From assembly GCA_029258795.1 (NCBI GenBank), contig JAPDKB010000002.1, positions 50,822 through 114,821 of the forward strand: 64,000 nt of DNA, read 5' to 3'. Both the position numbers and the translations under genes were made by a program. The notes under the pieces are model-generated. The model had not been told where the DNA came from, made no database searches, and was given only the letters and a program-made list of their open reading frames with translations. This document shows, piece after piece, positions 1 through 17,362 of the stretch. The stretch is from an archaeon. GTDB lineage: Archaea; EX4484-52; WAPT01. The first letter of the stretch is position 1; every line of letters starts with the position of its first letter.

Positions 1-1656
1 AGAATAGTTATAACTGAAATTCCATATCAGGTCAACAAAGCGAGAATGATAGAGCACATAGCAGAGCTTGTGAAGGATGGAGTTATAAGCGGTATAAGAG
101 ACATAAGGGATGAATCGGATAGAGAGGGATTGCGCGTCGTTATAGAGCTGAGAAAGGATGCAGACCCCAACATAGTTCTCAATCAGCTCTACAAGCACAC
201 TCAACTTGAAACCAGCTATTCCATGCTGAATCTGGCTCTGGTTGACAACCAGCCGAAAATCCTCACACTCCGCCAGATGCTGGATGAGTTCATAAAGCAC
301 CGCTTCACCGTCATCAGGAGGAAAGCTTCTTACGAGCTGAAGCTTGCCAGAGACAGGGAGCACATAGTGGAGGGCTTGCTCATAGCTCTGGCCAACATAG
401 ATGAGGTTATAGACCTCATCAAGAAATCAAAGGACAGGAAGGAAGCCATGAGCTCACTCATCTCAAGATTCCAGCTGAGCGAGAAGCAGGCAGATGCCAT
501 CCTAACCATGCAGCTGCAGAAGCTGACCTCCATGGAAGTGGAGAAGCTGAAGGAAGAAAAGAAGGAGCTGGAGGAGAGAATAAAGAAGCTGCAGAAGATT
601 GTGAATGAAGATGATGAAGTTTACAGGATAATGAGAGAGGAGTTTGAGGAGATAAAGAAGAAGTATGGAAGGGAGAGGAGAACGAGAATAGAGGAAAGGT
701 ATGAAAGCATCGATATTGAGGACCTCGTGCAGGAGGAGGAGGTCATAGTTCTCTGCACAAAGGAAGGTTTCATAAAAAGGATGCCCGCAAAGCTTTACAG
801 AACGCAGAGGAGGGGTGGCGCTGGCATAATAGGATTGCGTGCTGGCGATCACGATTACACAAAACATCTGATAGCTTGTTCAACCCACGATATTCTGCTC
901 ATCTTTTCAAACAAAGGTGTGCTCCGCACAATCAAAGCTTACGAGATTCCGGAGGCGAGCAGATACAGCAAGGGAAGGCACATCTCACAGCTTTTGAAAA
1001 TGGGTGAGGATGAGAAGGCGGCTGCAATCATTCCTTACAGAAAATCAAACAATTACAAGTACCTCTTCATGTACACCAAAATGGGCATCGTTAAAAAATG
1101 CGAGCTTGAGCTTTTTGCCAACGCAAAGAGGAGCGGAGTTATAGCAATAAAGCTGAAAGAGGGAGATAAGTTGATGGGTGCAATGCTCACTACAGGAAAC
1201 AATACGATAATGCTCGCAACAAGGAAGGGCATGGCAATACTTTTCAATGAGCAGGACGTCAGACCCATGGGAAGGAGCGCGGTCGGAGTGGTTGGAGTCC
1301 GGCTTGGCAAGGGTGATGAGGTCGTTGCAGGAGCTGTGGTTGATGACGCGGATTACATCCTCACGGTTACATCGAAGGGTTATGTGAAGAAGAGCAGGAA
1401 GGAAGAGTACAGGGTGATCAAGCGCGGTGGAAAGGGTGTGACTAACATAAAGCTGAGCGAGAAGAATGGTGAGGTGGTGACGGCTTTTGGAGTTAGAGAT
1501 GAGGACGAGATTGTTGCGATAACCAAGAGCGGCATGACCATAAAGGTGAGTGTGAAGCAAATTCCATGTCACGGAAGAGCAACCATGGGTGTCAGGTTGA
1601 TCAAACTTAAAGATGGGGATGTCGTGGCGGACGCTGCAAAAATAATTAATATTTAG
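1..1656 (+). CDS. gyrA: DNA gyrase subunit A, C-terminal portion (5' end cut by window edge)
   Basis: Frame-1 translation is open from nt 1 (RIVITEIPYQVNKARMIEHIAELV...) and continuous with ORF 46..1656; repeated beta-pinwheel-like segments typical of the GyrA C-terminal domain; stop TAG at 1654-1656. Confidence 0.85.
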   Translation, partial: RIVITEIPYQVNKARMIEHIAELVKDGVISGIRDIRDESDREGLRVVIELRKDADPNIVLNQLYKHTQLETSYSMLNLALVDNQPKILTLRQMLDEFIKHRFTVIRRKASYELKLARDREHIVEGLLIALANIDEVIDLIKKSKDRKEAMSSLISRFQLSEKQADAILTMQLQKLTSMEVEKLKEEKKELEERIKKLQKIVNEDDEVYRIMREEFEEIKKKYGRERRTRIEERYESIDIEDLVQEEEVIVLCTKEGFIKRMPAKLYRTQRRGGAGIIGLRAGDHDYTKHLIACSTHDILLIFSNKGVLRTIKAYEIPEASRYSKGRHISQLLKMGEDEKAAAIIPYRKSNNYKYLFMYTKMGIVKKCELELFANAKRSGVIAIKLKEGDKLMGAMLTTGNNTIMLATRKGMAILFNEQDVRPMGRSAVGVVGVRLGKGDEVVAGAVVDDADYILTVTSKGYVKKSRKEEYRVIKRGGKGVTNIKLSEKNGEVVTAFGVRDEDEIVAITKSGMTIKVSVKQIPCHGRATMGVRLIKLKDGDVVADAAKIINI

Positions 1657-1681
1657 CGCCATAATACTTTCCCTGTTGCAA

Positions 1682-1803
1682 GGGCCGGTGGTCTAGCGGC
1701 TATCTGCGAAAACCGGAGGGCTCAGCTCTCTCCGGTCTTCCAGACCGAAGATGACGTCGCCCTCACGCGGCGAAGGTCGGCGGTTCGAATCCGCCCCGGC
1801 CCA
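1682..1803 (+). tRNA. tRNA-Val (anticodon CAC, tentative) with ~49-nt intron in the D-loop region
   Basis: Acceptor GGGCCGG pairs with CCGGCCC+A; intact T-arm GGCGG-TTCGAAT-CCGCC; anticodon arm TCGCC-CTCACGC-GGCGA; ~49 extra nt between the D-loop and the 3' D-stem strand form internal hairpins. Confidence 0.7.
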
Positions 1804-2262
1804 TAGAAATTATCCGAATCGCATGTTTACCTAATCGCCAACATAATGCGTTACGAATATCACAAGGAGTGCTATCATCACGTGTTCTGCTATCATGTTG
1901 ACCGGGGTTCATTTTTCATTCTGGCCATTCTGTAACTCAGAAATGAAAGGAGAGACAACTCCCAGAAAACGCTGACCAAAACAGCCTTCTCCAATTCCAG
2001 AAGCAACATGGGCACCAGAAAGCTGAGAGCGAAGATGCTTATTAGGGAGAAGGCTTGCTCTACCGTGGTTCATCACTCCATTAGCTTGTTTGATGAACAG
2101 GTGGAACAAGCCTCCCTATAAATGTTTTGTTATCGGGACAGTATCAAAATTCCGGACATGTCAACTTAAGAACCAATTTCTCCACTCTGGCATAAAAATC
2201 AAAATAAGGGGGCTCAGCATATCTTGATTTTGCAAAACACACCTTAAAGGAGGTGATATACC

Positions 2263-2893
2263 ATGCTGAGCCCCCATATAGATGAAATGTTCTCAAGGAT
2301 ATTTAAAAGAAACAAAAAGCTGAAAGAAAAACAAGATAAAGCCAGTATTGCTTTATTTCTCGGGATTATCATACAGAAAAGCAGGAGATGAAACAGATAT
2401 GAGCCATGAGAACGTGAGAAAGTTATTCAGAAAAACGAAAGAATTTCTCAGGGAAATAAAGCCAGTAAAAAGAAAAACGATAGCAATGGATGAGACGGTG
2501 ATAAAAACAAACGGGAGGAGATGTTACATTTACGCAGCTTACGCATGAGGGCTTATGCAGCAAGAAGTTATTTGGCAGCTCTGGATTTTGTAAAACGGGT
2601 TTTTGGAGTTGGGTAAGAAAATAATCTCCTGTTTGCTGTTGATAAGGCTCCGCGGCATTAGACGGGTTTTTGAAAGACCCGGGTTGAGATATGTGCATGA
2701 GACTTCTGGAATGAGGAATAAAGTGTGGAGGGGGATCTTTTGGTTATTTGAAGCAGGGAAGTGTTTTGTTTTATTCACGACAATTAATGTGAATTTGGGG
2801 TCTGTGTTTGGAAGAATGGATAAAAGGGTTGAGGGATGGAGAAGCTTTGAGGCATCTGAATTTGTTTTTGAAGTTGTTTATGGTTTATTATGA
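2263..2893 (+). pseudogene. Degraded IS6-like transposase (multiple frameshifts)
   Basis: Three consecutive frames together read like one IS6-type transposase: MLSPHIDEMF...ALFLGIIIQKSRR*, then LYFSGLSYRK...MDETVIKTNGRRCYIYAAYA*, then RSYLAALDFVKRV and LRYVHETSGMRNKV; no single intact ORF. Confidence 0.5.
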
Positions 2894-3282
2894 TTGGTTT
2901 GTCAGGAGGTGAGGCTTATCCGGATGCACTCCTTGCACATACCACAAACATTTATATATAACTTTTGCCAAAATATAAAGCCATGATTAAAGATGCAATA
3001 ATGTTGGTTTCTATAATGTGGGGTGGAAGGTCGAAACAATAAGAAAAGAAAGTGGAAAGAATCTTCTTTTGAAATTGACTTTATTTTATGTTGCGCTGGG
3101 TATTGCTATATTTTTTTACTATGTTCGGGACTTTTATGTATATAATCAGGCATTGGATTTTTTGTTCGGTAAAATAGGTGGAACATTCCATACAATTTCA
3201 TTCCTTTCCATTTTCCTCTTCTCCGTAGATATATTTTATTCAGAGAAGTGGAAGAGATAGATATGCTTACTTTCTGGGAATT

Positions 3283-3636
3283 TTGCTGATGACTGTTTTC
3301 GTGATTTTCCTGTGGAACGTAACGTTTGCCAGTGAAATTCAGGTGGTTAAGCTTGATAAGGAGTACGTCGTAACTCACGTTTATTTTCCAGATAAATCCG
3401 AAATGATGCTTTACGTTGTTTTAGTGAGTGTAATATCATTTTTACCTATTCTCTCATTTTTAGCTTACGGAATAAAGGTTCCGGCGAAAAGAAGAAAGGC
3501 TCTAACCTATTGTTTGGGAATAGCCGTTACCGCCTCAGGAACCATGCTTTGCCTCCTTATATCCCCAATACTTGCACGAGTTATGTATCTGCTGGGTGCA
3601 GTCATCTGCTATTATGCTTTCAAAATGAAGAGTTGA
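3283..3636 (+). CDS. Small hydrophobic membrane protein (hypothetical)
   Basis: 117-aa ORF with 3 predicted TM segments, in an AT-rich region; no recognisable family. Confidence 0.3.
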   Translation: MLMTVFVIFLWNVTFASEIQVVKLDKEYVVTHVYFPDKSEMMLYVVLVSVISFLPILSFLAYGIKVPAKRRKALTYCLGIAVTASGTMLCLLISPILARVMYLLGAVICYYAFKMKS

Positions 3637-3640
3637 GGTA

Positions 3641-4114
3641 ATGAACATGACTGTGCTGCGAAAAAAAGAAAGAAGCATATGTATATCCCAGAGAGAATGG
3701 GCGGTGATGACTAAAAGGTTGTATGAAGTTGCAGGAAAGGTTTTTGGTAGAGCGCTCTATGAAGGTGGACAGGTAAAAGGAAAGGAATTGGTAAAAAAAT
3801 ATGGCGTAAAGAAAGACGATTTGAAACAATTGCAAGAAGTAATAAAAAAAGAGGGCCTTGCAAGAAATGTGGAGATACATGATAGAGAAATATTGGTTGA
3901 AGGTTCTTTTGAAGGAGAAGCTCTAAAACCATACACAAGGCCTGTGTGTTTTTATCTCGCAGGGATCATTGCAACCATTTATTCAAAGATAGAAAAGGAA
4001 GATGTAAAAGTTGAAGAAACGGACTGCATCTCCACAGGTAAAAAAGTGTGCAGGTTTGTCGTCAGGCCGCTTGAGTGGTATGAAAAGATGAATGAAGTTA
4101 TGGAAATAATTTGA
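3641..4114 (+). CDS. V4R domain protein
   Basis: 157 aa; C-terminal motif CFYLAGIIATIYS...ETDCISTGKKVCRFVV matches the V4R (4-vinyl reductase) Cys pattern. Confidence 0.55.
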   Translation: MNMTVLRKKERSICISQREWAVMTKRLYEVAGKVFGRALYEGGQVKGKELVKKYGVKKDDLKQLQEVIKKEGLARNVEIHDREILVEGSFEGEALKPYTRPVCFYLAGIIATIYSKIEKEDVKVEETDCISTGKKVCRFVVRPLEWYEKMNEVMEII

Positions 4115-4345
4115 AAAAAGTAAGCATGTTTTGGCTTCGTTTCCTTATATAAAGGGACAAGCAATTGCGACTTACTTATTCATATTATATCGTTTGGATA
4201 GAGGATGCTTGGAACTTTTGAAGTGAGAGGCTTTGGGACACCTATGTAAGCCACCTCCAAACATTTTTATTGGTTATAAGCTATATATCTCTATCGAACA
4301 AACACCTATTCGCGGTCTAAGCCGCAGTATAGCATCTTCGTTCAT

Positions 4346-4419
4346 GGGGATAGGGAAAGCTTAATCAAAATGTCGCAGTCTTAAGCTGCATGTCCCAAGT
4401 CAAGCTTTTCCCTATCCCC
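4346..4419. repeat. 17-bp inverted repeat (GGGGATAGGGAAAGCTT / AAGCTTTTCCCTATCCCC) with ~40-bp spacer
   Basis: Direct reading of 4346-4362 against 4402-4419; additional short palindromes nearby (GCGGTCTAAGCCGC); non-coding stretch. Confidence 0.5.
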
Positions 4420-4562
4420 TAAACATTTCCTTTCTTTTAAGCATGAAGTAAATTGCAATGCATAACTTTCTTGCTGCAGCAACTATTGTTTTGTGTGCTT
4501 CATAAATACCCACGGTGAGAGTCTGGGTCTTCTGGTGGCTATGCCCGACCGGGTTTTTTGAT

Positions 4563-5443
4563 ATGAGAGTGTGCATTGTTGGTCCTGCGAATCCTGGCGA
4601 GACAGAGATAGCTCTCACCGAGGCCGCCAAAAAGCGCTATTCCAAGGTATTGTACGCGCCCTTTTCCCGTCTCAGGATAGAAATGGTTGCCGGAGAGCCG
4701 AGAGCCTTCTACAAGGAATAGACCTTTCAGAGTTTGACATTGTCATACCCCGCGTCAGGAGGAGCGACGCGGATTTCGCATACGTCCTCTTAGGGGTTCT
4801 CGAGGACCTGGGAGTCTATTCTCCAATCTCGAGGGACAGCATTCTCTACGGGTTCAACGAGTATCTCATACCTTTCATTCTCGGGAGGGCTGGGGTCGAG
4901 ACCCTCACAACCCTCCTGGGCTCTACCCGGGCCGCCCTCGAGAAATCGATCTCGAGGCTGAGGTTCCCCGTGGTGGTAAAACTCCCCCACAACAAGGACG
5001 GGGCAATGATAGTGGACAGCGAGAAGATCGCCAGGTGCGTGCTCGACACTCTCGAGAGCCTCGGAGAGCCGATAATAGTCCAGGAGATGCTCGAGGGATC
5101 TGAGAGCTTCAGCATCCTCTATATCGGGGAGAGAACATATTGCATAGAAAAGCACAACGGGACCGCGAGAAAGAGAAAGCTTGGCATAGAAGAAAAGCGG
5201 ACCGCGAGGCGCATGACATCCCTCCTGGGAGCGAGCGTGTGTCAGCTGAACGGAATGATCTCTGGAGATAGGCTCGTGGTCATAGACCTCAACATCAACC
5301 CCTGGGTGCACAGACTCCAGGAGCACTTCAAGACCAACCTGTTCGAAAAGATCCTGGACCACCTGGAGAGCGGGTACTCTTCCTCTCGACGGGGCACTAT
5401 CCTAGACAAGTTCCTGAAATGGTTCGAGGAGATGAGGTGGTAG
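4563..5443 (+). pseudogene. RimK-like ATP-grasp ligase interrupted by a frameshift at ~4715
   Basis: N-terminal part MRVCIVGPANPGETEIALTEAAKKRYSKVLYAPFSRLRIEMVAGEPRAFYKE* (ORF 4515..4721) continues in another frame as GIDLSEFDIVIPRVRRSDADFAYV...PVVVKLPHNKDGAMIV (ORF 4571..5443); junction sits at a GG run; region is markedly GC-rich versus flanks. Confidence 0.6.
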
Positions 5444-5613
5444 AGTGTACAACGTTCTCATTACGGCATCGCCAAGAGTCTTGTGGACTACCCGCCAGCT
5501 TATTGAGGAGGGCAGGAAGAAGTTCAACCTCCACGTTGTCTCTCTATATGTTATCAATATTGAGGTTTCTCCCGGGATCGTCTCGTGCAGGCACAAGCGC
5601 TATTTATAAACGT

Positions 5614-6954
5614 TTAGTTTTTGCGGGAGAATAAGTCCTTATAATGACCCCAGTCCAGAATCTCCTTTAAGAAATCATTTATTTTAGACTCCAACATTAT
5701 GAGCCTTCCATCAGGGTCATAAACCCTTTCCAGAATATTTATGCGCTCGTCCAAAGTATTCCCATTTAAGCCTTGATAAAGAGGAGAGGAAAGAACTTCA
5801 TACAGTTTTTTAAGAATTTGTTCTTCACAAGCAAGAGCTTTACATTCCCGGATTTCCGATTTATATTTTTTAATTTCTTCAACCCTATTCTTCATTATTG
5901 AAATGCTTTCGCTTATTTTCTTCAGTTTTTCTTCACAATCCTCTACTCCCTTTATACTGTATTTCTTAAGCCAGATTTTTAATATCTGTGGCGGGAAAGT
6001 TTTCGGATTCTCTAGTATAATCCCCGAAAGATTTTCATCTCTTACTACCGAATTAATTTCATTGAAGATATCATCTCTGTTTATAACGTAATCCCATTTT
6101 ATTTCTATACCTTCCCGTGTTTTTTTTCCAAATTTATTCAACATATTAACAAAACTTCTCGGCAGATTGTTTGAATGTTTCTCCCACATATACTCTATTT
6201 TTCTGTCAGCTTTCACTCTATAGACTGAAAATAGACACGAAGAAAGTGGAGGTTCTACGCAGATTGGAAGACCTGAGATGTCTTCCAGACCTGAGATCTC
6301 TTCCAGATTTTCAGATTCTATATAACGATTATACTCATAGATTGGGTTTTTTGTTGATATTATAATTCTCTTGCCTTCATCCCGTTGCTCAAGGGCTATT
6401 AATGCAAGTTCATTCATGACAGCTTTTCCTATGTCTCTTGTAGCTTCTCTTGCGACAAGATCTCCTACGTAGTCCCAGTTATCGATGCATACAACCTCTG
6501 CCTCATTTATAAGCTTTTTTGGGTCAGTTAGATCGGCTTTTAGGGTCCATTCCCATTTTTCTCTATTTTCCTCTGAAAGATATATTCTAGGGTCAAATGC
6601 CTTTATATCTCCTGTGAAGATATCGAAATATACTCCTGCAGGAAATATATCTTCTTCCGCTAAAATATTAAACGCAGCTAGAATTCTGGTGGTTTTTCCT
6701 ATACCTCTTGTTCCACGAAGTTCTATATTATCTGACTTGATCCTATCTGCTAATATTTTCGAGTCCAAATAATATACTTTACATTTTAGTATGTCATTCA
6801 ATAGATTATAGTCCATTTCTTCCGCTCTGAGCGGAATATTCGGAGAGTAATCTTCTGATGTCACTTGATTTGGACTTTTAATATCAGTTTCCTTCATAGA
6901 TAGAAATTTTTGACATAAAATTTTAAATAATTTTGGCTCCACGCCATAAAACAT
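5614..6954 (-). CDS. Orphan P-loop NTPase (archaeal ATPase-like), function unknown
   Basis: 446 aa; Walker A LRGTRGIGKTTRIL, Walker B-like VVCIDNWD; coiled-coil-rich C-terminus; AT-rich gene beside IS elements. Confidence 0.55.
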   Translation of the reverse strand: MFYGVEPKLFKILCQKFLSMKETDIKSPNQVTSEDYSPNIPLRAEEMDYNLLNDILKCKVYYLDSKILADRIKSDNIELRGTRGIGKTTRILAAFNILAEEDIFPAGVYFDIFTGDIKAFDPRIYLSEENREKWEWTLKADLTDPKKLINEAEVVCIDNWDYVGDLVAREATRDIGKAVMNELALIALEQRDEGKRIIISTKNPIYEYNRYIESENLEEISGLEDISGLPICVEPPLSSCLFSVYRVKADRKIEYMWEKHSNNLPRSFVNMLNKFGKKTREGIEIKWDYVINRDDIFNEINSVVRDENLSGIILENPKTFPPQILKIWLKKYSIKGVEDCEEKLKKISESISIMKNRVEEIKKYKSEIRECKALACEEQILKKLYEVLSSPLYQGLNGNTLDERINILERVYDPDGRLIMLESKINDFLKEILDWGHYKDLFSRKN

Positions 6955-6978
6955 ATAAAAAACATTTAATTCGGCAAG

Positions 6979-7819
6979 GATTCATAACAAAAACAAGAGC
7001 TTTCTCTATTCCATCATCCAATTAATTTCCCATAAATTCAAAAACGAAGAAAATTTTTTCATGTTCTTAAAACCGCGAAACTTTCTGTATCTGTTCCTGA
7101 GCCATGAGATCAAACCTTCTGCCCTGTTATTGCTAAGAAAATAAATCATACCTTTATGAAAAACAATCTTTTTTTCAAAATGAGCTATAACACGCTTAAT
7201 CTTTCTAATTCTTAACCCCTTTCTCAGGGTTTTACTATCATATCCATACCATCCATCCGTTACTATTATCTCAGGTTTGTATCCCGCATTCTCTATAGCT
7301 TTTCTAAGCAATCTAACAACTTCTTTGCTTTCCCTTCTATCACTAACATGCATTGCCATAATTCTTGATCTTTCATCGCAGCAAACATAAAGATAGTTCA
7401 TTCTTCCCTTAGCTTTAACATACATCTCATCCAAATGCCATACCTCTGCAATTTTTTCAAATTCCTTATTCTTTGCCTTAAGCTCTTTGAGAAACTTTTT
7501 ATCCTTTCCAAATTTATGTATCCAGTTAAGAACAGTTCTTGCAGGAACTCTTATTCCTTTAAATTTTTCCATAATCTTCTCAACATCATAGGTTGAAACA
7601 ACAAATCTTGAGTAAAGCCACAGGCAAAGCATAACAATCTCTTTATCATATCTTATCCTCGCAAATTCGTCCATACCTTTTTCTGAGAAAACGTAGAAAC
7701 ATTTTTTGCATCTGTATCTCTGGTATTTCTTATCTTTATGTTTGTAAAAACCCAGCTTCCATATATCTCTTGATGAGCATCTGGGACATGAAATCTTCAT
7801 GAATTTTTTATTATGAATG
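6979..7819. mobile_element. IS6-like insertion sequence (~840 bp) with imperfect terminal inverted repeats
   Basis: Left end ATTCATAACAAAAA (~6980-6993) versus reverse complement of right end ATTCATAATAAAAA (~7805-7818), 13/14 match, bracketing the transposase ORF 7006..7800. Confidence 0.5.
7006..7800 (-). CDS. DDE transposase, IS6-family-like, with N-terminal zinc finger
   Basis: 264 aa; CPRCSS...YRCKKC zinc ribbon; DDE region WHLDEMYVKAKGRMNYLYVCCDERSR...IIVTDGWYGYD resembles the IS6 DETYVK..G..YL..A.D motif (IS1-like is an alternative). Confidence 0.7.
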   Translation of the reverse strand: MKISCPRCSSRDIWKLGFYKHKDKKYQRYRCKKCFYVFSEKGMDEFARIRYDKEIVMLCLWLYSRFVVSTYDVEKIMEKFKGIRVPARTVLNWIHKFGKDKKFLKELKAKNKEFEKIAEVWHLDEMYVKAKGRMNYLYVCCDERSRIMAMHVSDRRESKEVVRLLRKAIENAGYKPEIIVTDGWYGYDSKTLRKGLRIRKIKRVIAHFEKKIVFHKGMIYFLSNNRAEGLISWLRNRYRKFRGFKNMKKFSSFLNLWEINWMME

Positions 7820-7826
7820 AGGTTAT

Positions 7827-8726
7827 TTATATGTTTTTTGGCGTAGAACCCATTAATTTCTCTATTACTGCCAGAGTTTTCCCTATTAAATTTGTTTTTA
7901 AATTAAGCAAAAATTCGAAAAAGCTTACCCATAAGCTAAGATATTTCTTGCTTATCCCCCTAAACACCCTATACCATGATTTTAAAAAAGAAAATCTATT
8001 CTCTGCATTGTTAATATGAACATTGCCTTCCGCAAACCTTTTCTTGTTATGCGGGATTATTCCATGTTTATAACCTTTTCTCTCTATTTCCTTTGTATAA
8101 ATAGGAAAGTCATCAGTATTTACTATAGAGCCTTTCTCAACATAAGTTTCGAGTAGCTCTAAAACAAGCTCTTCACTTAAGCCTTCCAGAGCTACGAAGA
8201 ATATGCTCTTACCTTTTCTTTCAGTTAAAACTATGACTGGAGTTTTGCCTTCTTTTAGCCCACCTCTACCTTTAATTCCAGTTCCACCCCTCTTCATAGG
8301 CTTTCTAGAAAGCCTTCTATTACCCTTTTCACCAGCTGTTAGATAGGTTTCATCCATCTCAACATTAACTTTTAGCTTGGAAGCTATTTGCCTTGCAAGC
8401 AAATCTTGCTTGATTTTCTTAGCTGCTTTCCAAACATGCTCATATTTTCTACCAAGATCGATTGCTATTGAATAAATGCTTCTTCCAGCCGAATGCTCTT
8501 TTATTATATAAGACCATTCCCAAATCGGTAGCTTTGATTTATCGAATATCGTTTTGGTTCTATTGTTGAAAGTTCTTTTGCATTTTTTGCAAAGATAGCG
8601 TTGAAAGCCTTTCTTATCCTCACCCCTCTTAACAACCTCCTTTGACCCGCAGAAAACGCACCTTACTCCTTCTTTCCATCTAAGCTTTTGGATTATTTCT
8701 ATGCACTTCTCATCACCTGGGGGCAA
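7827..8726 (-). CDS. IS1595-family-like transposase
   Basis: 299 aa; N-terminal zinc ribbon CVFCGS...QRYLCKKCKRTF; DDE motifs VEMDETYLTAGEKG and VNTDDFPIY; C-terminal NAENRFSFLKSWYRVFRGISKKYLSLWVSFFEF typical of IS1595/ISH4. Confidence 0.7.
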   Translation of the reverse strand: MPPGDEKCIEIIQKLRWKEGVRCVFCGSKEVVKRGEDKKGFQRYLCKKCKRTFNNRTKTIFDKSKLPIWEWSYIIKEHSAGRSIYSIAIDLGRKYEHVWKAAKKIKQDLLARQIASKLKVNVEMDETYLTAGEKGNRRLSRKPMKRGGTGIKGRGGLKEGKTPVIVLTERKGKSIFFVALEGLSEELVLELLETYVEKGSIVNTDDFPIYTKEIERKGYKHGIIPHNKKRFAEGNVHINNAENRFSFLKSWYRVFRGISKKYLSLWVSFFEFLLNLKTNLIGKTLAVIEKLMGSTPKNI

Positions 8727-8820
8727 AATCTCTTGCAGTCAGCATACATTGTTATTTTATAGTTTTCTATTTTCGTTATGAGATGTGAGCGAAAGCTTTT
8801 TGTAGTTGATTTTTTGAACT

Positions 8821-9636
8821 TTGTTTATGATGCCCGGTAAAAAAGCTGTGATTCTAATAGGAGGAATGATAATGGTTGTGGCAGTTCTGAGCTTATGCGT
8901 GCAGAAACCGGAAGAAGGGGCACCCACGATTCAGCCAGGAAAGGAATTAAAGCTTTCTGATTTCCCTGAAGTGTTTAGCGAGAGTACTTTGATTGTTGTT
9001 GGAGACAACGCTTCTGAGGTTGAAGTTCAAGCAGCTAATGAAATTGCTGAATATTTGGAGGATGAGACCGGGAATAAACCTTTGATAAAGAAGTATTCTG
9101 AGGTTAGTGAGGAAGATAAGAGAAATTACAACTTGATTATTGTTGGCGCTTCTAATTCTAACCCTATGCTAAGGAAAGTCTCTGAGGAATGTACAAGAAA
9201 GAACTTCAAAAAATTAGAATTTAAGGGAGTTAATAGTTATTGGCAGGGCACAGGTAAAGGATACATACTTATTTTAGAAAACTTATGGTCGACAAGTAAA
9301 TGTATGTTGATTGTTGATGGATATGACAGCAGCGGGCTAGAATCTGCAGTTAGCACCCTTTTAAATACAGATATAATTATGTCCATAAACAATAGCGGTA
9401 TTTTAGTAAAATTAGAGAGTAGTACTCGAATACAAACTCTTCCAGTGTCTAAACTTTCAAAAATAGTGGCTAAAGATATTGCAGCAGAGTATTTGATAAA
9501 ACGATGTCAAACTATTCCTGAGGATAGTTTTAAGCTGAAAGTGTCGGATTTTGGAGATTACTGGCTAATTGAAGGAGGCTGTATCAAACTTCTAGTAGAT
9601 AAAAATAATGGTTTTGTAGAGGAGGTGAAATCTTGA
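8821..9636 (+). CDS. Secreted protein with S-layer-like N-terminal domain
   Basis: 271 aa; N-terminal signal/TM; conserved block TLIVVGDNASEVEVQAANEIAEYLEDETGNKPLIKKYSEVSEEDKRNYNLIIVGASNSN resembles archaeal S-layer N-terminal domains; paralog of the 9757..10685 gene. Confidence 0.55.
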   Translation: MFMMPGKKAVILIGGMIMVVAVLSLCVQKPEEGAPTIQPGKELKLSDFPEVFSESTLIVVGDNASEVEVQAANEIAEYLEDETGNKPLIKKYSEVSEEDKRNYNLIIVGASNSNPMLRKVSEECTRKNFKKLEFKGVNSYWQGTGKGYILILENLWSTSKCMLIVDGYDSSGLESAVSTLLNTDIIMSINNSGILVKLESSTRIQTLPVSKLSKIVAKDIAAEYLIKRCQTIPEDSFKLKVSDFGDYWLIEGGCIKLLVDKNNGFVEEVKS

Positions 9637-9756
9637 AGGCCAATTAATGACCTTCTTTGTATTATTCGTTCTCTTGTGTCCTACTGCATACGACATTCTA
9701 TCATCGAGATACTCTCTAAAATTCTATAGTAGTAACCAACTTTTGAAAGTTCACAT

Positions 9757-10685
9757 TCATGTATTATCACCTCCTACTAACATGGAACCGTCGCTACATC
9801 CTTCAGCCTGGCATGGAACTTTTACATTTTTTAAACCCCAGTCGTGGATCACTACTAAATTTAGACTCTTATTTAGATTAATCACAGCACAACTATGGTT
9901 GACAATATAGTTCAGAGTTGGATAACCTACGAAATAAGTTTCGTTTGATGATAAAAAGCTCTTGTTAACAATTATTCTCCCGTAATATTTATCTTCGCCA
10001 ACCTGGTGTAAAGGTGCTGTAACTATTTCTTTAATCGACTCGAACGTTCTTGTACTTTTATTATATCCGATCAATTGATATAAAGTCACTACTTTAGGTG
10101 GCTCTCCACTTAACTCATATTTTGGATCTGATGGTTCATCTGTTAGAACTAAAACATCTATTCTGATCTTGTCCTTAATGCTTGGAGCAATTACTACACT
10201 GGTTTCATTTTTAATCAGTGCAATCGGGTTTAGTTCAAGTCCCGCACTATACACCCCCACTCATCCCACCCTTCAACCAGTAACATCGCCTTATTTTTAT
10301 TCCAAGGATTCCTCAAAATTTCCAAAACACCCTTACCCTCTCCCGGAAATGTATCATTAACTTCCAAAACATCAACCATAGAATAAACTTCTATCAGCAT
10401 GAGATTGGAATTCGGCGTGCCAACAACAACTAAATTGTGGTTTCTTTTATCTTTCTCCGTGATTTCAGAATATTTTTTTATTAAGGGTTTATCCCCTGTT
10501 TCATTTTCCAAATAAGAGGTAATCTCGTTTGCGGCTTGCAATTCAATCTCAGAAGCATTATCACCAACGATAATTAAGGTATTATTCCCGAAATTTTGCC
10601 AGAGGAAAATGCCTATTATCAAAAGGATTAAAATTACGGTTCCTGCAATAATTAAGATCTTTCTGTTCATCATAATGTTTATCAT
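9757..10685 (-). pseudogene. Frameshifted paralog of the S-layer-domain protein
   Basis: ORFs 10230..10685 and 9757..10260 overlap by 31 nt in different frames; together they align with the 8821..9636 protein (LLVEGWDE then SAGLELNPIALI versus LIVDGYDSSGLESAVSTLL); shift lies in a poly-C run near 10254-10258. Confidence 0.55.
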
Positions 10686-10843
10686 TAAGTCTCATTATGC
10701 TTTTTTAATTATAAAATTTACGGCTCCAAGCGGCTTCGAGACAAAATTCATAGCTTGAGTTTTCGAGCTATGAAGATCAGAACTCCATACCACAAAAATT
10801 AGTTAGCTAAAACATTTCCGTATAAAAAACCATATTATACAGC

Positions 10844-11848
10844 ATGGGGGATAAAAAGAAAAGAAAAATAACAACCGAGGAAATAAGAGACATTACAAAC
10901 AAACTTGATAAAATAATCAAATATTACAAAGAGAAATACGGGGAAGATAAGAGCAGGAGAGACTGGCGTACATATGAGCAGAGAAGAACATTAAGGATGA
11001 AGCAGGCAGGGAGAGAGCTAAAAAATCTTATAGAAAGGGCTGCAGAGAATATAGAAATAGCTAAGGATAACAACAGGGGAAGAAAGCCGAAGCTTACAGC
11101 CAAGGACAAAGCCCTGATCATTCTTATAAAGGAAATATTCGATCTGAGCAACAGAGAACTTGCTGATATGATATTCATCTTTTCCTTAATGGCAGGAGTT
11201 GATGTAAGTTATAAAACCATTGAGAGAGCTTACGATGATGAGCTTGTTAAGTTAAGCCTGCACAACTTATTCGTTCTCATGGTTAAGGAAAAGATTATAG
11301 ATGATGTTGAGCTTGCTGGAGATGGAACTGGATACAGCTTGAGCATTAAGAAGCAATATGCTGATATTGAGGATGAGGGAAAGCAAAGAAAGGATTTCGT
11401 TTATTACTTTGCTCTGCTCGATTTAAGAACAAATCTTTATGTTGGATATGGCTACAGTAAAAGGTCGGAGAGGGATGCTTTTGATAAGGCCATGAAAATT
11501 ATGAGTAAGCTCGGCATTAATGTTAAGAGTGTGAGGCTTGATAGATATTATTCAAGCAACGCTGTGGTTAAAGAATATTTTGATGATAAGGATGTTAAGC
11601 TTTATTTAATTCCCAAGAAGAATGCTTCTGTTAAAGGCTGTAAGAAATGGAAGGAAGTTATGCATGGCTTTGCTGATGATGTTTACGGGTTTTTGCGTGA
11701 GTATTTTAAAAGGAATAAAGTTGAAAGCATGTTTTCCTTTGATAAGCGTAAGTTTTCTTCTCGATTAAGGGTCAGGAAGGATGAGAGAATTGCTACGAGC
11801 TTGCTTGCAAGGACTGTCTTGCATAATTTGTTTTGGTTTTATGGTTAG
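10844..11848 (+). CDS. Putative DDE-type transposase (family uncertain)
   Basis: 334 aa; lysine-rich N-terminus with HTH-like region, LAGDGTGYSL and later acidic motifs; sits among IS elements; family assignment not verified. Confidence 0.45.
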   Translation: MGDKKKRKITTEEIRDITNKLDKIIKYYKEKYGEDKSRRDWRTYEQRRTLRMKQAGRELKNLIERAAENIEIAKDNNRGRKPKLTAKDKALIILIKEIFDLSNRELADMIFIFSLMAGVDVSYKTIERAYDDELVKLSLHNLFVLMVKEKIIDDVELAGDGTGYSLSIKKQYADIEDEGKQRKDFVYYFALLDLRTNLYVGYGYSKRSERDAFDKAMKIMSKLGINVKSVRLDRYYSSNAVVKEYFDDKDVKLYLIPKKNASVKGCKKWKEVMHGFADDVYGFLREYFKRNKVESMFSFDKRKFSSRLRVRKDERIATSLLARTVLHNLFWFYG

Positions 11849-11923
11849 CTATTGGGTTAATTTTGTCCCAAAGCCACCACAACCACAAACTTTATATACG
11901 ACGATCGCAATATTTCTATCTGG

Positions 11924-12952
11924 GTGATTTGGATGGCGGAGAATTCTCCTAATTACCGATATGATCCTCTCATAGGCGAGCTTTACTTGAATAAAATCTC
12001 GTGTGAGTTAACAACCAGAAAGTTTCACAATGACTTGAGGAGGGAGTTCGAGGCCATTCTGGGCGCGGTAGCTAAATCCATGTTCTACACGGTGGGTAAG
12101 GTAACGGGCATGATTGTTGCAAAGTACTTTGATGATATTGATGTGCTTTCGTGGATGGGTTGGGGTGTGCCTCTGGTTAAAAAAGATGGAAGCGTGGAAG
12201 TTAAAAATTCTTACATGACCATGTATCGGAGCGAGATAGGCAAGAAGTCATGCGATATCGTTGCAGGATTTCTGGCAGGGTGGTTCAGTAGGAAGGAAAA
12301 GGATAATGTCGATTTTATAGAATCGAGGTGCGCCTCAACCACTAAGTTCAAGACCTGCAGGTTTGAAAGGGTTGAAAAGAATGTGGCTGTCGAAGTACCT
12401 AAAATCAGGATGAAGAAGCCCAGAGAACACCTGAAAAATGTGAATATAAACCTGAAACCATCCAGTGGTGAGATAATTTATAGGGGAGATTCGTCTCTCA
12501 TCATTCCACGTGGCTTTACCGCGATCTTTCAGAGGGAATTTGAAAGGGTGATCGGGGCTGTTGCTTCCAGAAAAATGTACGAAGTTGTGAAGAAAATAAG
12601 TTATGAGGCAGTTGTGAAGGAGCAGGGGTTCAGGTTTATTGGACTTGCTATTCTTCCCAAATTCATCCGTGCAAAGCTGCTTCTTCATGAAGAGCTTGTG
12701 CAGCTACCCGAAAGAGGTTTTGGGAATGTCAGGGTTTTAAGACTGGATTTGAAGGAAGGGATTCTGCTGGAAATTGATAATTCTTACAACGCATTCACCT
12801 ACGGTAAGGTTGGCAAGCCCGTGTGTCACACGCTTGCAGGAGTTCTTGCGGGAGGTGCCAAGGCGGTGATTGGCGGAGATTGGGAATGCGTGGAGAATAA
12901 ATGCGTTGCTGCAGGAGATGGTGTCTGCGAGTTCGAGTTGAAGCCGGCGTGA
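11924..12952 (+). CDS. Tandem V4R domain protein
   Basis: 342 aa; two repeats ending in V4R-like Cys motifs (CDIVAGFLAGWFS...CASTTKFKTCRFE and CHTLAGVLAGG...WECVENKCVAAGDGVCEFEL). Confidence 0.55.
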   Translation: MIWMAENSPNYRYDPLIGELYLNKISCELTTRKFHNDLRREFEAILGAVAKSMFYTVGKVTGMIVAKYFDDIDVLSWMGWGVPLVKKDGSVEVKNSYMTMYRSEIGKKSCDIVAGFLAGWFSRKEKDNVDFIESRCASTTKFKTCRFERVEKNVAVEVPKIRMKKPREHLKNVNINLKPSSGEIIYRGDSSLIIPRGFTAIFQREFERVIGAVASRKMYEVVKKISYEAVVKEQGFRFIGLAILPKFIRAKLLLHEELVQLPERGFGNVRVLRLDLKEGILLEIDNSYNAFTYGKVGKPVCHTLAGVLAGGAKAVIGGDWECVENKCVAAGDGVCEFELKPA

Positions 12953-13011
12953 AAGTACTGCAAAATTTAAAAGTTAACGCTGTAAAATATTTTTCGTTCT
13001 CCTGCCCGGGT

Positions 13012-13181
13012 GCGGGGGTTGCCGAGCCTGGCCAAAGGCGCTGCCTTGAGGGGGCAGCCGCCGCGGTGTATGAGAGGTGGCGCCGCAGTGGCCCATTCCC
13101 TTAGTGGGTTCGAGGGTTCAAAAGCTTGGTCAAGCCGTCCTCCCTCGGCAGCTTAAATGGCTGGAAGTCCCTCCCCCCGCA
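13012..13181 (+). tRNA. tRNA-Leu (anticodon GAG, tentative) with two non-canonical introns (variable region and T-loop)
   Basis: GCGGGGG acceptor pairs with CCCCCGC+A+CCA; D-arm GCCGAGCCTGGCCAAAGGCG; anticodon arm CTGCC-TTGAGGG-GGCAG; T-stem GAGGG...CCCTC split by ~45 nt; ~40 extra nt before the variable arm (TCCCTTAGTGGGTTC). Confidence 0.6.
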
Positions 13182-13213
13182 CCACCATCATGCTTCATGT
13201 TCCTTACGTTCAT

Positions 13214-13351
13214 GCGGGGGTTGCCGAGCCTGGCCAAAGGCGCGGGGCTTAGGACTCCGTGGCTCAGTGCCTGCGTGGGTTCGAAGGCCGCTGTTCGGTG
13301 GCTGGGTTTTCAAGTCCGATCTTAACGCGGCCGGAACTCCCACCCCCCGCA
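13214..13351 (+). tRNA. tRNA-Leu (anticodon TAG) with T-loop intron
   Basis: Same 30-nt 5' end as the upstream Leu gene; anticodon arm CGGGG-CTTAGGA-CTCCG; long variable arm; T-stem GTGGG...CCCAC interrupted by ~50 nt after TTCGAA; CCA encoded. Confidence 0.65.
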
Positions 13352-13423
13352 CCAGCCCGAACCAGATTTCTGCCAAGAATTCACCATTAATTATATAAAC
13401 GATGAAATCCCCAACCTTTACTC

Positions 13424-15463: not shown

Positions 15464-15466
15464 TCT

Positions 15467-16633
15467 TCACTGCTCTCTCTTGCTCCCGATCGTCACCAGC
15501 TCCGTGTTTTCAAGCGCTTTTTCCACAAGCCCTTCAACATCCATATTCTCCTCTATTCTCTTCACAACCTCCAGCTTTGCCCTTGTTTCGGGATGCTTCG
15601 CTATCATGAACGAGCAGCAATCGGGATATGGTTGAATTGAAATTTCGTACGTGCCGATCCTTTTTGCAAGATCTATGGTTTCCTCCTTGTCAAAGCCAGC
15701 TAGCGGTGTGAGCACGGGCATGCCTGTAGCTTCATAAATCGCTGCAAGATTGTCCAGAGTTTGCGATGCTACCTGCGCCACATTGTCTCCGGTGACAAGC
15801 GCGTTTGCTCCCTCCTTTCTCGCTATTTTTTCACCTATCCTCATCATGAACCGCCTGTAGATTATCATTCTGTAGGAGGCGGGCACAACCTTTATTATCT
15901 CGCGCTGCACATCTCCAAAATTCACCATGTAGAGCTTGCTCTCGCCCTGAAATTCTGCAAGCACCCTCACAATGCTCTCGATCTTCTTCCTCACCTCCCT
16001 GCTGTGCAGCGTTTCATTGAAGAAATGGACAAAAACAATTTTGCATCCGCGTTTCATGAGAAGGAATGATGCAACAGGGCTGTCTATACCGCCTGAAAGC
16101 AGGGACACCACCCTGCCGGAAACGCTGACCGGCAGACCGCCAACACCCTCAATTCTTTCCGTGTAGATGTACGCTTCCTTCTCACATATCTCGATGTGCA
16201 CCACAACATCCGGCTCTTTCATCTTCACCTTCTTGCCCAGCTTCTCCACCACCACACTCCCAACCATTCTGTTGATCTCCATCGAGTTGTATGGAAAGGA
16301 TTTGTTTGAGCGTGATGCCGCTATCTTGAACGTGCTGAACTTCATGTCCTGGAGAATGGCTACTGCAGCTTTCTTGATCGCCTCGATATCCAGCTTGCAA
16401 ACCCTTGCCAGCGCGAAATATCTTATGCCCGGAGTTTTGCTGAGCTTCTCCGCAATTTCATCAGCCTTGCTTTCATCTCTAATCTCCACTATTATCCTTC
16501 CAAACCTTCTCCTTGCCAGCGCGCCGGCCCCCTTCACCTTCCTGTTGATGTTCTCCACCAGCTTTTTCTCAAAGAATTCCCTGTTCTCTCCTTTCAACCC
16601 TATTTCGGAATAATGCACAACAAAAACCTTCAT
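15467..16633 (-). CDS. thiI: tRNA 4-thiouridine sulfurtransferase ThiI
   Basis: 388 aa; N-terminal THUMP-like region; PP-loop SGGIDSPVASFLL; overall ThiI architecture. Confidence 0.8.
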   Translation of the reverse strand: MKVFVVHYSEIGLKGENREFFEKKLVENINRKVKGAGALARRRFGRIIVEIRDESKADEIAEKLSKTPGIRYFALARVCKLDIEAIKKAAVAILQDMKFSTFKIAASRSNKSFPYNSMEINRMVGSVVVEKLGKKVKMKEPDVVVHIEICEKEAYIYTERIEGVGGLPVSVSGRVVSLLSGGIDSPVASFLLMKRGCKIVFVHFFNETLHSREVRKKIESIVRVLAEFQGESKLYMVNFGDVQREIIKVVPASYRMIIYRRFMMRIGEKIARKEGANALVTGDNVAQVASQTLDNLAAIYEATGMPVLTPLAGFDKEETIDLAKRIGTYEISIQPYPDCCSFMIAKHPETRAKLEVVKRIEENMDVEGLVEKALENTELVTIGSKREQ

Positions 16634-16679
16634 GGAGAAAAAGTATTGTGAGGAAAGGTTAAAAAGGATGAACCCGGGT

Positions 16680-17261
16680 TTACTTGCCCCTGCCCTGATT
16701 TGCTCTTATGCTCGGCCTTACCTTCTCAGCACCTTTACCCTTGTTTCTCAATCCTCTGGCTTTCTTGCCCGCTGAGGTCAGCCCTCTAAACACCCTGCCT
16801 TTGTGCGCCTTTCCCGCTATCCATCCGAGCTGTTCATCGTTCTTTATGGCCGGATGGTGTGGGTCGAGCATTATCACCTCATACCACACGTACTGTCCGT
16901 CCTCCCCCACATAATAGCTGTTCAGAACTTCGAGGTTTGGATAGTGCCTTGCTGCCCTCTCCTCAGCTATCCACTGCAAGCTTTTCTTCGGACTGAACAG
17001 AACGAAACCGTATCTCTTTGGTCTCCTACCCTGCCTGTGTCTCGGCCTCTCTCTTCCACCCCTCTTAACACGTACCCTGACAACAACCACACCCTGCTTT
17101 GCTTTATAGCCGAGCGATCTTGCCCTGTCTATTCTTGTGGGTCTCTCAACTCTAACCACGGCAGGTTCTCTCCTCCACTTTATCAATCTCTCCTGCCATA
17201 GCTTGCCCAAGCTTTCCTTCGGTCTCTTCCACAGGGTTCTGACGTACTGGTACATGCCCAT
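16680..17261 (-). CDS. rpl15e: Ribosomal protein L15e
   Basis: 193 aa starting [16 protein letters not shown]; basic, with the L15e-type [12 protein letters not shown]... segment. Confidence 0.85.
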
Positions 17262-17362
17262 AGAACATCACTCCATAAACAACTGACAAACTTTCTTCAT
17301 CCTCCGCAACATTTATATATTTAACTGCGCCGACTTCGTGAAGCAGTATGCCCTATACTCAA

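Follow-up and report, generated by a model that had tools for sequence, protein, structure and literature searches.

Between a tRNA-Val gene and a pair of tRNA-Leu genes, the 64-kb window (the whole stretch of archaeal DNA that was analysed) carries an 11-kb island that is genuine but ordinary: AT-rich and packed with insertion sequences (IS), broken genes, and a few orphans. We consider it probable that this is a lineage-specific island that grew stepwise in a permissive tRNA spacer, through IS insertion, capture of DNA by IS, and decay. The tRNA genes flank the island (1804–13011) exactly as the sequence-only reading had it, 1804 being the first base after tRNA-Val and 13011 the last before tRNA-Leu. 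The border features are as follows:

1682–1803, forward strand: tRNA-Val(CAC), the left anchor, with a 49-nt D-loop insertion (about 1702–1752)
1804–2329, no strand: AT-rich stretch without an assignable gene, holding a 66-aa ORF (1909–2109, reverse strand) and a hairpin
12960–12998, forward strand: tRNA-Leu(GAG) upstream region, promoter-like and conserved; CAAAATTTAAAA...TTTCGTT aligns with related genomes L034 and L036
13012–13184, forward strand: tRNA-Leu(GAG), with encoded CCA, aligned to L034 and L036
13214–13354, forward strand: tRNA-Leu(TAG), with encoded CCA and an additional 52-nt T-loop insertion, aligned to L034 and L036
13424–15463, forward strand: second variable slot, encoding a 679-aa protein, between tRNA-Leu and thiI

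The exons of the three tRNA genes were placed by alignment to near-identical, intron-poor orthologues of related genomes; ARAGORN and Rfam mostly missed these genes. On the left, likeness to the relatives ends directly past tRNA-Val, and 1804–2329 showed no similarity to their Val-Leu spacer in the alignment. This stretch contains a 17-nt hairpin (2204–2220/2263–2279), and its 66-aa ORF had no match in Pfam or NCBIfam at E ≤ 1. On the right, the tRNA-Leu promoter region is kept to 12960, and the conserved stretch 12960–12998 marks the right limit of the insertion. The tRNA-Leu genes do border the island, but variability extends beyond them: the 679-aa membrane protein, which had no family match and shows a signal peptide and multiple transmembrane segments in its translation, is also lineage-specific, being absent from L034, L036, and the more distant relative L037, where thiI follows after 0.04–1.7 kb of other content.

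The closest relatives found were three genomes (L034, L035, and L036; about 71%–76% GyrA identity), including “Ca. Marinivulcanus frater” of the DPANN phylum EX4484-52. Their gene order is gyrA, tRNA-Val, 125 bp, tRNA-Leu, about 130 bp, tRNA-Leu, and thiI, with a gyrA-to-thiI span of 0.66–1.5 kb and no island. In L037, both tRNA-framed slots (Val-Leu and Leu-thiI) are filled by other, non-IS, housekeeping-type genes; the EamA, VIT1-like, and YjeF_N genes there do not match the island genes. The Val-Leu slot thus differs from lineage to lineage, and the presence/absence comparison found no IS-free conserved gene order. No relative closer than about 71%–76% in GyrA identity was found, so when the event took place and in which direction is judged from parsimony plus composition.

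The composition is distinctive. The sharp GC swings noted earlier are real: the island is mostly 31%–40% GC with a 55% patch at 4500–5600, against a backbone of about 45%–49%, and GC by gene forms a mosaic (33%–40%, 46%, and 55%). The suggested codon-usage profiling also separates the island from 43 backbone ORFs, with a GC at third codon positions (GC3) of 0.29–0.41 for island genes and 0.75 (z = +3.4) for a RimK-like gene, compared with 0.50 ± 0.075 for the backbone. Absence from relatives together with its own composition and third-position usage supports the description of a variable, IS-rich accessory region. The alternative of an ancestral region that the Marinivulcanus lineage lost by deletion, with an unusual composition due to AT drift and relaxed selection near the IS, would agree with the presence of genes in the L037 Val-Leu slot and with the backbone-like composition of one island gene (V4R342, below). 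We regard this as very unlikely, since the L037 genes are unrelated to those of the island, neither the GC3 shift of intact genes nor the RimK-like value is expected from drift, and for most island proteins homologues are scarce or absent everywhere.

The stepwise growth that we favour is suggested by the mobile elements of the island:

2330–2900, forward strand: degraded IS6-family transposase pseudogene with at least 3 stops, in three frames
4415–4498, reverse strand: possible IS110-family transposase remnant (C-terminus), weak
6935–7850, reverse strand: complete 916-bp IS6-family element; terminal inverted repeats (TIRs) 6935–6963 and 7822–7850, transposase 7006–7800
7851–8800, reverse strand: IS1595-family transposase gene (ORF 7827–8726)
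10732–11875, forward strand: 1,144-bp IS5-like element; TIRs 10732–10748 and 11859–11875, transposase 10844–11848

The stitched translation of the degraded copy matched NF033587 (IS6; E = 4.4e-8, model positions 17–148) and PF13610 (E = 0.007), which bears out the IS6-like assignment; its catalytic E is substituted, and at the DNA level it does not resemble the intact IS6. The latter proved complete, as had been read from the sequence, with 29-nt TIRs matching at 25/29 positions and tipped by GG, and its transposase, which carries an N-terminal zinc ribbon, scored 75 bits with PF13610 and 109 bits with NF033587. We take its DDE triad to be intact, judging from the translation by comparison with IS26. 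The IS1595 family assignment holds (NF033547, 140 bits over a cut-off of 75; PF12762 and PF12760 also matched), but the copy is incomplete: the last 8 codons and the stop of the ORF are supplied by the IS6 TIR, the downstream end of the element is gone, and a search for a TIR partner found none. The IS6 element is therefore nested in the 3′ end of IS1595. The third transposase of the earlier reading belongs to the IS5-like element, whose 17-nt TIRs match at 15/17 positions and whose transposase hit NF033579 (E = 4.5e-16, 59 bits) lies under the cut-off of that model. The IS110-like remnant is a possible match, weakly supported by the final 24 positions of NF033542 (E = 0.036), and Pfam gave no match.

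The three transposase families have no further copies inside the window. IS6 and IS1595 appear to be single-copy in the sample, since Logan contig L031 runs unbroken through both. No 8-bp target duplication flanks the IS6 element and none was seen for the IS5-like element, so no single insertion event is directly documented.

Members of the IS6 family normally generate 8-bp repeats and have GG tips (PMC7986276), and they typically measure 700–890 bp (Varani et al. 2021, PMC7986276). The window element resembles IS6/IS26 in its single DDE transposase, IS240-type domain, HTH, short GG-tipped TIRs, and near-family size, and is slightly larger than typical (916 bp, 264 aa, 29-nt TIR). It has the N-terminal zinc ribbon described mainly for clostridial clades (PMC7986276), shares only 25%–33% identity with plasmid-borne members, and is not part of a pseudo-compound transposon, as a second identical copy is absent. 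IS26-type replicative or intramolecular events leave a truncated neighbour and no target duplication, as here (Varani et al. 2021, PMC7986276).

We propose that the starting point would have been a spacer of about 125 bp, from the terminator side of tRNA-Val to the tRNA-Leu promoter, in a DPANN EX4484-52 archaeon, and that assembly would have proceeded piecemeal by transposition and not by site-specific integration. IS of at least 3 DDE families (IS6, IS1595, and IS5-like) may have entered this spacer, where insertion would be harmless, each new element offering more harmless target DNA for later ones, as the IS6 within the IS1595 3′ end may illustrate. The IS, and above all the IS6-family element, could then have joined or deleted DNA and so brought in foreign or paralogous sequence; relatives of that element form cointegrates replicatively, and no target duplication flanks this copy. 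Among the DNA so acquired would be the AT-rich genes and the single GC-rich RimK-like gene, together with a copy of the nearby membrane-plus-V4R cassette. Much of what the island contains is in decay: one IS6 copy is dead, IS1595 is truncated, and three genes carry frameshifts. The remaining genes are as follows:

3018–3636, forward strand: membrane-protein gene, split by a frameshift at about 3255–3283
3641–4114, forward strand: V4R-domain protein, 157 aa (V4R157), apparently intact (PF02830, E = 3e-16)
4515–5443, forward strand: GC-rich RimK-family ATP-grasp gene with one frameshift at about 4715 (GGG to GG)
5614–6897, reverse strand: orphan AAA+ P-loop ATPase, 427 aa (Walker A GTRGIGKTT, Walker B VVCIDN)
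8821–9636, forward strand: S-layer-like copy 1, secreted or anchored; PF05124 outer domain below threshold (E = 4e-4)
9757–10685, reverse strand: S-layer-like copy 2, with a frameshift in a G5 run at about 10245 (PF05124, E = 9e-4)
11924–12952, forward strand: double-V4R protein (V4R342), with PF02830 in two stretches, adjoining the tRNA-Leu promoter

The frameshifted rimK-like gene was correctly recognised, its repaired frame matching PF18030 (Rimk_N) and PF08443 (RimK); a search of 5.8 billion clusters gave, apart from the gene itself, a best homologue of 22%–25% identity. Both V4R proteins were likewise called correctly. The split membrane gene is 47%–58% identical in amino acids to positions 202–864 of contig L032 over two frames, and is a paralogue of an intact 220-aa gene upstream of gyrB; V4R157 is a paralogue, with 57% identity, of a 152-aa V4R gene, also upstream of gyrB (L032 872–1330). 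The unit 3018–4114 and a cassette that the same genome carries 5 kb away are thus diverged paralogues, and the unit is not exotic DNA. V4R342 has a single non-self homologue (42% identity), and because both it (GC3 0.51) and the 679-aa protein have a backbone-like composition, they may be older residents rather than imports. The two S-layer-like genes are convergent paralogues (54% amino acid identity over residues 52–172, the N-terminal domains), one of them frameshifted, but their S-layer identity falls under the Pfam threshold. Accessory genes are present, but the “novel cargo” anticipated earlier is modest, largely decaying, and in part a local paralogous cassette. The genes of the island serve no common function. 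Those that look intact encode the IS6 and IS5-like transposases, V4R157, the double V4R, the AAA+ ATPase, and S-layer-like copy 1, and each acts on its own, if it acts at all.

The island resembles tRNA-associated islands (pNOB8-type, SSV-type, and P4-like) in lying directly 3′ of a tRNA, in being missing from relatives, and in its deviant base composition and orphan and accessory genes. A single integrative element (plasmid or provirus) that recombined site-specifically into the tRNA-Val 3′ end, and whose integrase and att sites IS activity has since removed, would fit the start at the first base past tRNA-Val, the foreign composition, and an ATPase whose fold resembles that of initiators and loaders (DnaA, Cdc6/Orc1, and DnaC) and which could be a replicon gene. 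We consider such an origin unlikely. No tyrosine or serine recombinase was found by Pfam, NCBIfam, or PDB sequence search, ORFs beside the tRNA included, and PDB matches for the translation flanking tRNA-Val (2110–2180 included) contained no recombinase. The anticipated direct repeat of the tRNA-Val 3′ end at the distal boundary was not found: its 3′ half has no repeat of at least 9 nt within 1807–16000, and no repeat joins both borders. PHROGs gave nothing convincing for the proteins scanned (best E = 0.016), and the four proteins scanned against IMG/VR (the AAA+ ATPase, the IS1595 and IS5-like transposases, and S-layer-like copy 1) had no relatives there. The GC mosaic argues for several sources. 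Unlike the known islands, this one has no integrase (whole or partitioned), duplicated tRNA segment, or att repeats, and it occupies the space between two tRNA genes rather than the inside of one. Without an integrase or a tRNA-Val 3′-end repeat, it is not a classical tRNA-integrated element.

The ATPase was confirmed as an orphan P-loop NTPase without a sequence-family match; a start at 6954 was set aside for the real start at 6897. Its gene is located beyond the TIRs of the IS6 element and is thus not a helper gene of that IS. Compared with the AAA+ initiator/loader clade (DnaA domain III, Cdc6/Orc1, IstB, TnsC, and MuB), it shows 8%–16% identity, has N after Walker B instead of E or D, and contains no recognised winged-helix or DNA-binding domain; its C-terminus is predicted, at low model confidence, to form a long helix (DSSP helix 303–369). 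The family is very rare.

The least probable of the explanations weighed is an assembly or binning artefact, in which AT-rich contigs of another organism were joined at repeated tRNA sequences. Coverage of the source assembly is about 3×, the two tRNA-Leu genes have a 31-nt exact repeat in common, and independent Logan contigs end at 2136, 3074, 9387, 9521, 11885, and 13217; only the low-coverage assembly of the window itself spans 2137–3073 and 9388–9520. However, independent assemblies tie both island ends to the backbone: L033 (1–2136) and L032 join gyrBA and tRNA-Val to about 250–330 bp of island DNA, and L043 (11022–14529), from a different assembler, runs from the IS5-like element through V4R342 and both tRNA-Leu genes into the 679-aa gene. 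Coverage is similar for backbone and island contigs (3.36 versus 3.09), and the island contains a paralogue of a same-genome cassette. Sequence error could account for two of the three frameshifts, which fall in G-runs.

IS-rich plasticity zones (“IS graveyards”) occur in archaeal chromosomes, such as those of Sulfolobales and Halobacteria. The present island resembles them in that decaying IS copies from several families lie clustered and nested, along with pseudogenes, in a dispensable region, and differs in occupying one 11-kb tRNA spacer of a small-genome DPANN lineage, with each IS apparently single-copy.

The border tRNA genes also carry additional putative introns. The exons of tRNA-Val differ from the 73-nt tRNA-Val of L034 and L036 at one D-loop position, where the window has C and they have T, and its D-loop insertion, a putative non-canonical intron, is not present in their aligned genes; Rfam gave a 24-bit partial match and ARAGORN missed the gene. 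ARAGORN found only a fragment (13223–13300) of tRNA-Leu(TAG). In tRNA-Leu(GAG), a variable-region insertion is common to the relatives and a 45-nt T-loop insertion is additional; the T-loop insertions of both tRNA-Leu genes were placed at 59/60 by reading the alignment by eye.

Positions 1804–13011, which separate the tRNA-Val gene from the first of two tRNA-Leu genes, form a lineage-specific, partly decayed genomic island, built by insertion sequences (ISs) in a spacer between tRNA genes of an archaeon from EX4484-52 (DPANN). Three properties mark the region as a genomic island: it is absent from the relatives, deviates in base composition (except for the double-V4R protein V4R342), and carries mobility genes of the IS6, IS1595, and IS5-like types. 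The sequence-only reading had described a variable, IS-rich region here; that reading is supported, and nearly every item it listed was recovered in HMM searches. The window is archaeal and begins within gyrA (46–1656), and housekeeping genes (thiI, L15e, helicases, and archaeal SRP RNA) are found from 13.4 kb on. The island and the tRNA genes that frame it contain the following features:

Features of the island and its framing tRNA genes (strand given where assigned)
1682–1803, tRNA-Val(CAC)
about 2330–2900, degraded IS6-like copy, its coding sequence spread over three frames and broken by several stops; once stitched, it still matches the IS6 model (E = 4e-8)
3018–3636, membrane gene split by a frameshift
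3641–4114, V4R gene (V4R157) that appears intact
4415–4498, possible IS110 remnant
4515–5443, RimK-like ATP-grasp gene (Rimk_N and RimK domains) whose halves join on repair of one frameshift in a GGG/GG run
5614–6897, P-loop protein (orphan AAA+ ATPase) with no family match
6935–7850, IS6-family element of 916 bp; 29-nt terminal inverted repeats (TIRs; 25/29 match) with GG tips
7827–8726, IS1595-family DDE transposase with an N-terminal zinc ribbon (NF033547, score 140 bits, cut-off 75; PF12762; PF12760)
8821–9636 (+) and 10685–9757 (−), convergent paralogue pair, N-terminal domain 54% identical
10732–11875, IS5-like element; 17-nt TIRs (10732–10748 and 11859–11875; 15/17 match) flank the transposase gene
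11924–12952, double-V4R protein (V4R342)
13012–13184, tRNA-Leu(GAG)
13214–13354, tRNA-Leu(TAG)

When protein sequences were searched with the GyrA fragment, the matches comprised the source contig and relatives with identities of 71%, 61%, and 56–58% (fragment) or 76% and 66% (full length); a scan of genome contigs with the same fragment gave, among the matches listed, only distant gyrases (about 45%) from bacteria and Woesearchaeota. One of these relatives, ‘Candidatus Marinivulcanus frater’ (type genome GCA_015520605.1), belongs to the phylum EX4484-52/‘Terrarchaeota’, DPANN cluster 2 (PMC13195033), and the window thus derives from a related DPANN archaeon. In the 3 closest relatives found (GCA_015520605.1, GCA_027056545.1, and GCA_054011715.1), the order is gyrB, gyrA, about 60 bp, tRNA-Val, 125 bp, tRNA-Leu(GAG), about 130 bp, tRNA-Leu(TAG), thiI, and L15e, with an extra 238-aa ORF before thiI in GCA_015520605.1. 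The island is therefore absent from all 3 while its gyrA and thiI flanks are conserved. Similarity to the relatives stops no more than 2 bases past tRNA-Val, and the tRNA-Leu upstream region (CAAAATTTAAAA...TTTCGTT) is kept at 12960–12998, right after the V4R342 stop codon; the 11.2 kb between these points thus represents an insertion into, or a replacement of, the roughly 125-bp spacer. In L037, a relative at a greater distance, tRNA-Val and tRNA-Leu are separated by 3 kb that contain EamA, a VIT1-like gene, a 272-aa gene, and YjeF_N, and NUDIX and Fe-ADH genes lie between tRNA-Leu and thiI; no gene of either set resembles an island gene. The tRNA framework is conserved, and the slots between the tRNAs are filled differently in each lineage examined. 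The second slot of the window (13424–15463) holds a 679-aa membrane protein, so the variable region reaches past the right boundary originally proposed. The locus is a clean, well-bounded, tRNA-framed insertion hotspot in a little-studied DPANN lineage.

Source coverage was thin (about 3x); independent contigs span 1–2136, 3074–9387, 9521–11885, 11022–14529, and 13217–25463, so that both island–backbone junctions are supported twice, the right one having been confirmed through protein P0136. The interior links 2137–3073 and 9388–9520 are given by the window assembly alone. Across 11022–14529, an ENA assembly of the same organism (L043) shows 15 clustered differences, mostly G/T, and 2 of these substitutions put stops into V4R342. 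These differences probably reflect errors due to low coverage, and they show that calls at single bases are uncertain in this MAG; 2 of the 3 candidate frameshifts lie in G-runs.

The tRNA limits proposed for the region are real: the exons of all 3 framing tRNA genes align almost base for base with the intron-poor orthologues of related genomes, and 1804–13011 is the exact interval from tRNA-Val to the first tRNA-Leu. Each of the 3 genes contains an extra insertion of 45–52 nt that the orthologues in Marinivulcanus genomes lack. In tRNA-Val, the insertion is located in the D-loop (about position 20–23); in both tRNA-Leu genes, it is located in the T-loop (59/60), and the 3′ ends of these 2 insertions are alike (GGCYGGAAS). 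Because the exons are intact, the insertions are probably non-canonical introns. MFE folds did not establish a strict bulge-helix-bulge motif at the insertions. Owing to the insertions, standard tools miss or truncate these genes: ARAGORN reported a single truncated tRNA-Leu for the 3, and Rfam at gathering thresholds made no call within the first 16 kb. Intron-laden tRNAs overlooked in this way are an annotation lesson, as are the several island ORFs that are pseudogenes or IS debris. ‘Ca. Marinivulcanus frater’ has a low tRNA count of 15/20 (PMC13195033), to which missed intron-laden tRNAs might contribute; however, its copies of these 3 genes are intron-poor and mostly detected. Over-long tRNA-like genes also occur at about 35216–35368 (+), 51985–52105 (+), and 55850–55973 (−); 2 of these coincide with inverted-repeat pairs (I1 and I3), and 1 has the first 16 nt of tRNA-Val. 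The heavy tRNA intron load therefore looks genome-wide, not island-specific. The spacer between the 2 tRNA-Leu genes (13185–13213) is 29 nt long versus about 130 nt in the relatives, which leaves the second gene without an upstream region of its own; it may be co-transcribed with the first.

The sharp swings in GC content reported in the sequence-only reading are also real. Backbone GC at codon position 3 (GC3) is 0.50 ± 0.075 (43 ORFs), compared with 0.29–0.41 (z −1.1 to −2.8) for island genes and 0.75 (z +3.4) for the RimK-like gene; V4R342 has a backbone-like composition, as does the 679-aa protein on the far side of the tRNA-Leu genes. This mosaic argues against a single donor, as an element integrated into tRNA-Val as one unit would have. 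The sequence-only reading had suggested a search for direct repeats of the tRNA-Val 3′ end at the distal boundary, and none was found. BLAST (word size 7), 10-mer comparison, and ungapped extension with a shuffle control revealed no attL/attR-like repeat, with no 10-mer shared beyond chance. In the ungapped scoring (+1 per match, −3 per mismatch; threshold 9), no match reached 9 when the two boundaries were compared with each other, nor when the 3′ half of tRNA-Val was compared with 1807–16000, and no repeat of either tRNA-Leu occurs within the island or at its distal end. Pfam, NCBIfam, and PDB sequence searches detected no domain of a tyrosine or serine recombinase, either among the ORFs or in the frames stitched together beside tRNA-Val. 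An ORF at 1909–2109 (−) beside tRNA-Val resembled a recombinase by eye (H-x-x-R and L-G-H motifs) and was discarded, since it had no support from any of these 3 resources. A PHROGs scan of island proteins gave nothing convincing, and IMG/VR contained no relatives of the IS1595 transposase, the IS5-like transposase, the first S-layer-like copy, or the ATPase family. The island is not strictly a tRNA-integrated element, nor is it a functional system.

The IS6 transposase (264 aa, with a zinc ribbon) is a DDE enzyme of the IS6/IS240 type with an HTH; it matches PF13610 with 75 bits (GA 27) and NF033587 with 109 bits, under the strict cut-off of 125, and its D, D, and E residues are readable (HLDEMY, IVTDGW, and NNRAEG). 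The length and TIRs of the element fit the short TIRs with GG tips and the length of about 0.7–0.9 kb of the IS6 family, whose members move by replicative cointegrate formation, normally leaving 8-bp repeats (PMC7986276). No 8-bp direct target repeat is present at this copy, which is flanked by ATAATTTT and CATTAATT; this fits a cointegrate or deletion history and does not prove it. Plasmid database matches of the transposase were at 25–33% identity only. In the IS1595 element, the IS6 TIR stands in place of the 3′ end, and a search for paired TIRs was negative; this copy is not a complete element. HMM searches confirmed both of these transposases and the degraded IS6-like copy. The third transposase that had been noticed appears to be IS5-like: in addition to its TIRs, it matches NF033579 over the full model (E = 4.5e-16), with 59 bits against a cut-off of 140; it has no Pfam DDE match, and no target duplication was seen. 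For the proposed IS110-like C-terminal remnant, a weak match was indeed found (24 residues against the last 24 model positions at the extreme C-terminus of the transposase, E = 0.036, with no Pfam match), which leaves the assignment unproven. A pseudo-compound transposon made of the dead and live IS6 copies was rejected, because the 2 copies have no DNA similarity and opposite orientations. A Logan contig (L031) runs straight through IS6 and IS1595, so these copies are apparently single-copy in the sample; together with the lack of other copies of the 3 transposase families in the 64-kb window, this gives no evidence of current IS activity.

In the simplest account, ISs would have transposed serially into a harmless spacer, earlier copies serving as landing pads for later ones, and the IS6-family element would then have rearranged the result. 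We infer an IS26-type intramolecular event or cointegrate resolution, which would leave no repeat and would account for the two flanks of the element, one with truncated IS1595 and one with unrelated DNA. The region is of a well-known type, and the island adds nothing new as to mechanism.

Among the remaining genes, the 2 V4R proteins and the rimK-like gene with its candidate frameshift were recovered in HMM searches, the latter after frame repair. The membrane gene and V4R157 share 47–58% identity with an intact pair (220 and 152 aa) of the same genome. The intact pair is situated between tRNA(CAT) and gyrB, some 5 kb upstream from the copy in the island and just beyond the window. On contig L032 (57–1330) of this genome, the order is tRNA(CAT), the 220-aa membrane gene, the 152-aa V4R gene, and gyrB. 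Only 134 nt separate tRNA(CAT) from gyrB in Marinivulcanus, and the upstream pair is therefore another lineage-specific insertion adjacent to a tRNA. The island carries a diverged second copy of this cassette, and a region of about 20 kb around gyrBA contains 3 V4R genes. V4R342 has one non-self homologue (42% identity). The convergent pair was recovered, with a candidate frameshift in a G5 run of its second copy; of the S-layer assignment, only a sub-threshold signal was found, as PF05124 (S-layer outer domain) matches the same profile region in both paralogues (E = 4e-4 and 9e-4) below the gathering score. The repaired RimK-like frame matches PF18030 (33.7 bits, GA 26.4) and PF08443 (35.6 bits, GA 21), which gives it the PreATP-grasp and ATP-grasp domains of the RimK/ATP-grasp alpha-L-glutamate ligase family. 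Its score of 38 bits against the TIGR00768 cut-off of 143 is too low to assign a subfamily or substrate, and its closest relative among 5.8 billion clusters has 22–25% identity. The non-coding island DNA contains 2 near-perfect hairpins, one at 2204–2279 (17-nt arms, 16/17 match) and one at 4346–4419 (13-nt arms, perfect match); their loops measure 42–48 nt, and they could be terminators or miniature element remnants.

The P-loop NTPase had been called an orphan, and it is present and family-less in HMM searches. Its true start is at 6897, in agreement with a 427-aa gene call in an independent assembly; the 19 codons that seemed to open the gene are read from the IS6 TIRs, and so are the 8 codons that close the IS1595 ORF. 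The family has 11 representatives among 1.84 billion proteins. A BFVD structure search gave generic AAA+ matches only (TM below 0.35), the plasmid database gave no match, and a metagenome scan with the single protein found nothing. A scan with a 4-sequence alignment found one locus, on a JGI contig of 33% GC (L044, Ga0180302_10001062, 146–10915): a type-4 BREX operon (BrxP, BrxC/PglY, PglZ, and BrxL), followed about 360 nt downstream by a 287-aa homologue, the one relative with genomic context. This is the sole defence link of the island, and PADLOC gave no defence match for 6 island or neighbouring proteins. It is unlikely that this very rare family has a mobile-element or defence function of its own and that the island keeps a fragment of a DPANN mobile element; if so, the ATPase could serve replication or target selection in an archaeal element not yet described, or its gene could be an accessory to defence. 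Of everything described here, only the rare AAA+ family, the GC-rich RimK-like gene with its high divergence, and the additional tRNA introns might merit more work.

Elsewhere in the window, a PMT_2-like membrane glycosyltransferase gene at 52433–53863 (−), with 30% GC and a GC3 of 0.26, lies about 330 nt from the over-long tRNA-like gene at 51985–52105 and may be a second small tRNA-adjacent acquisition.
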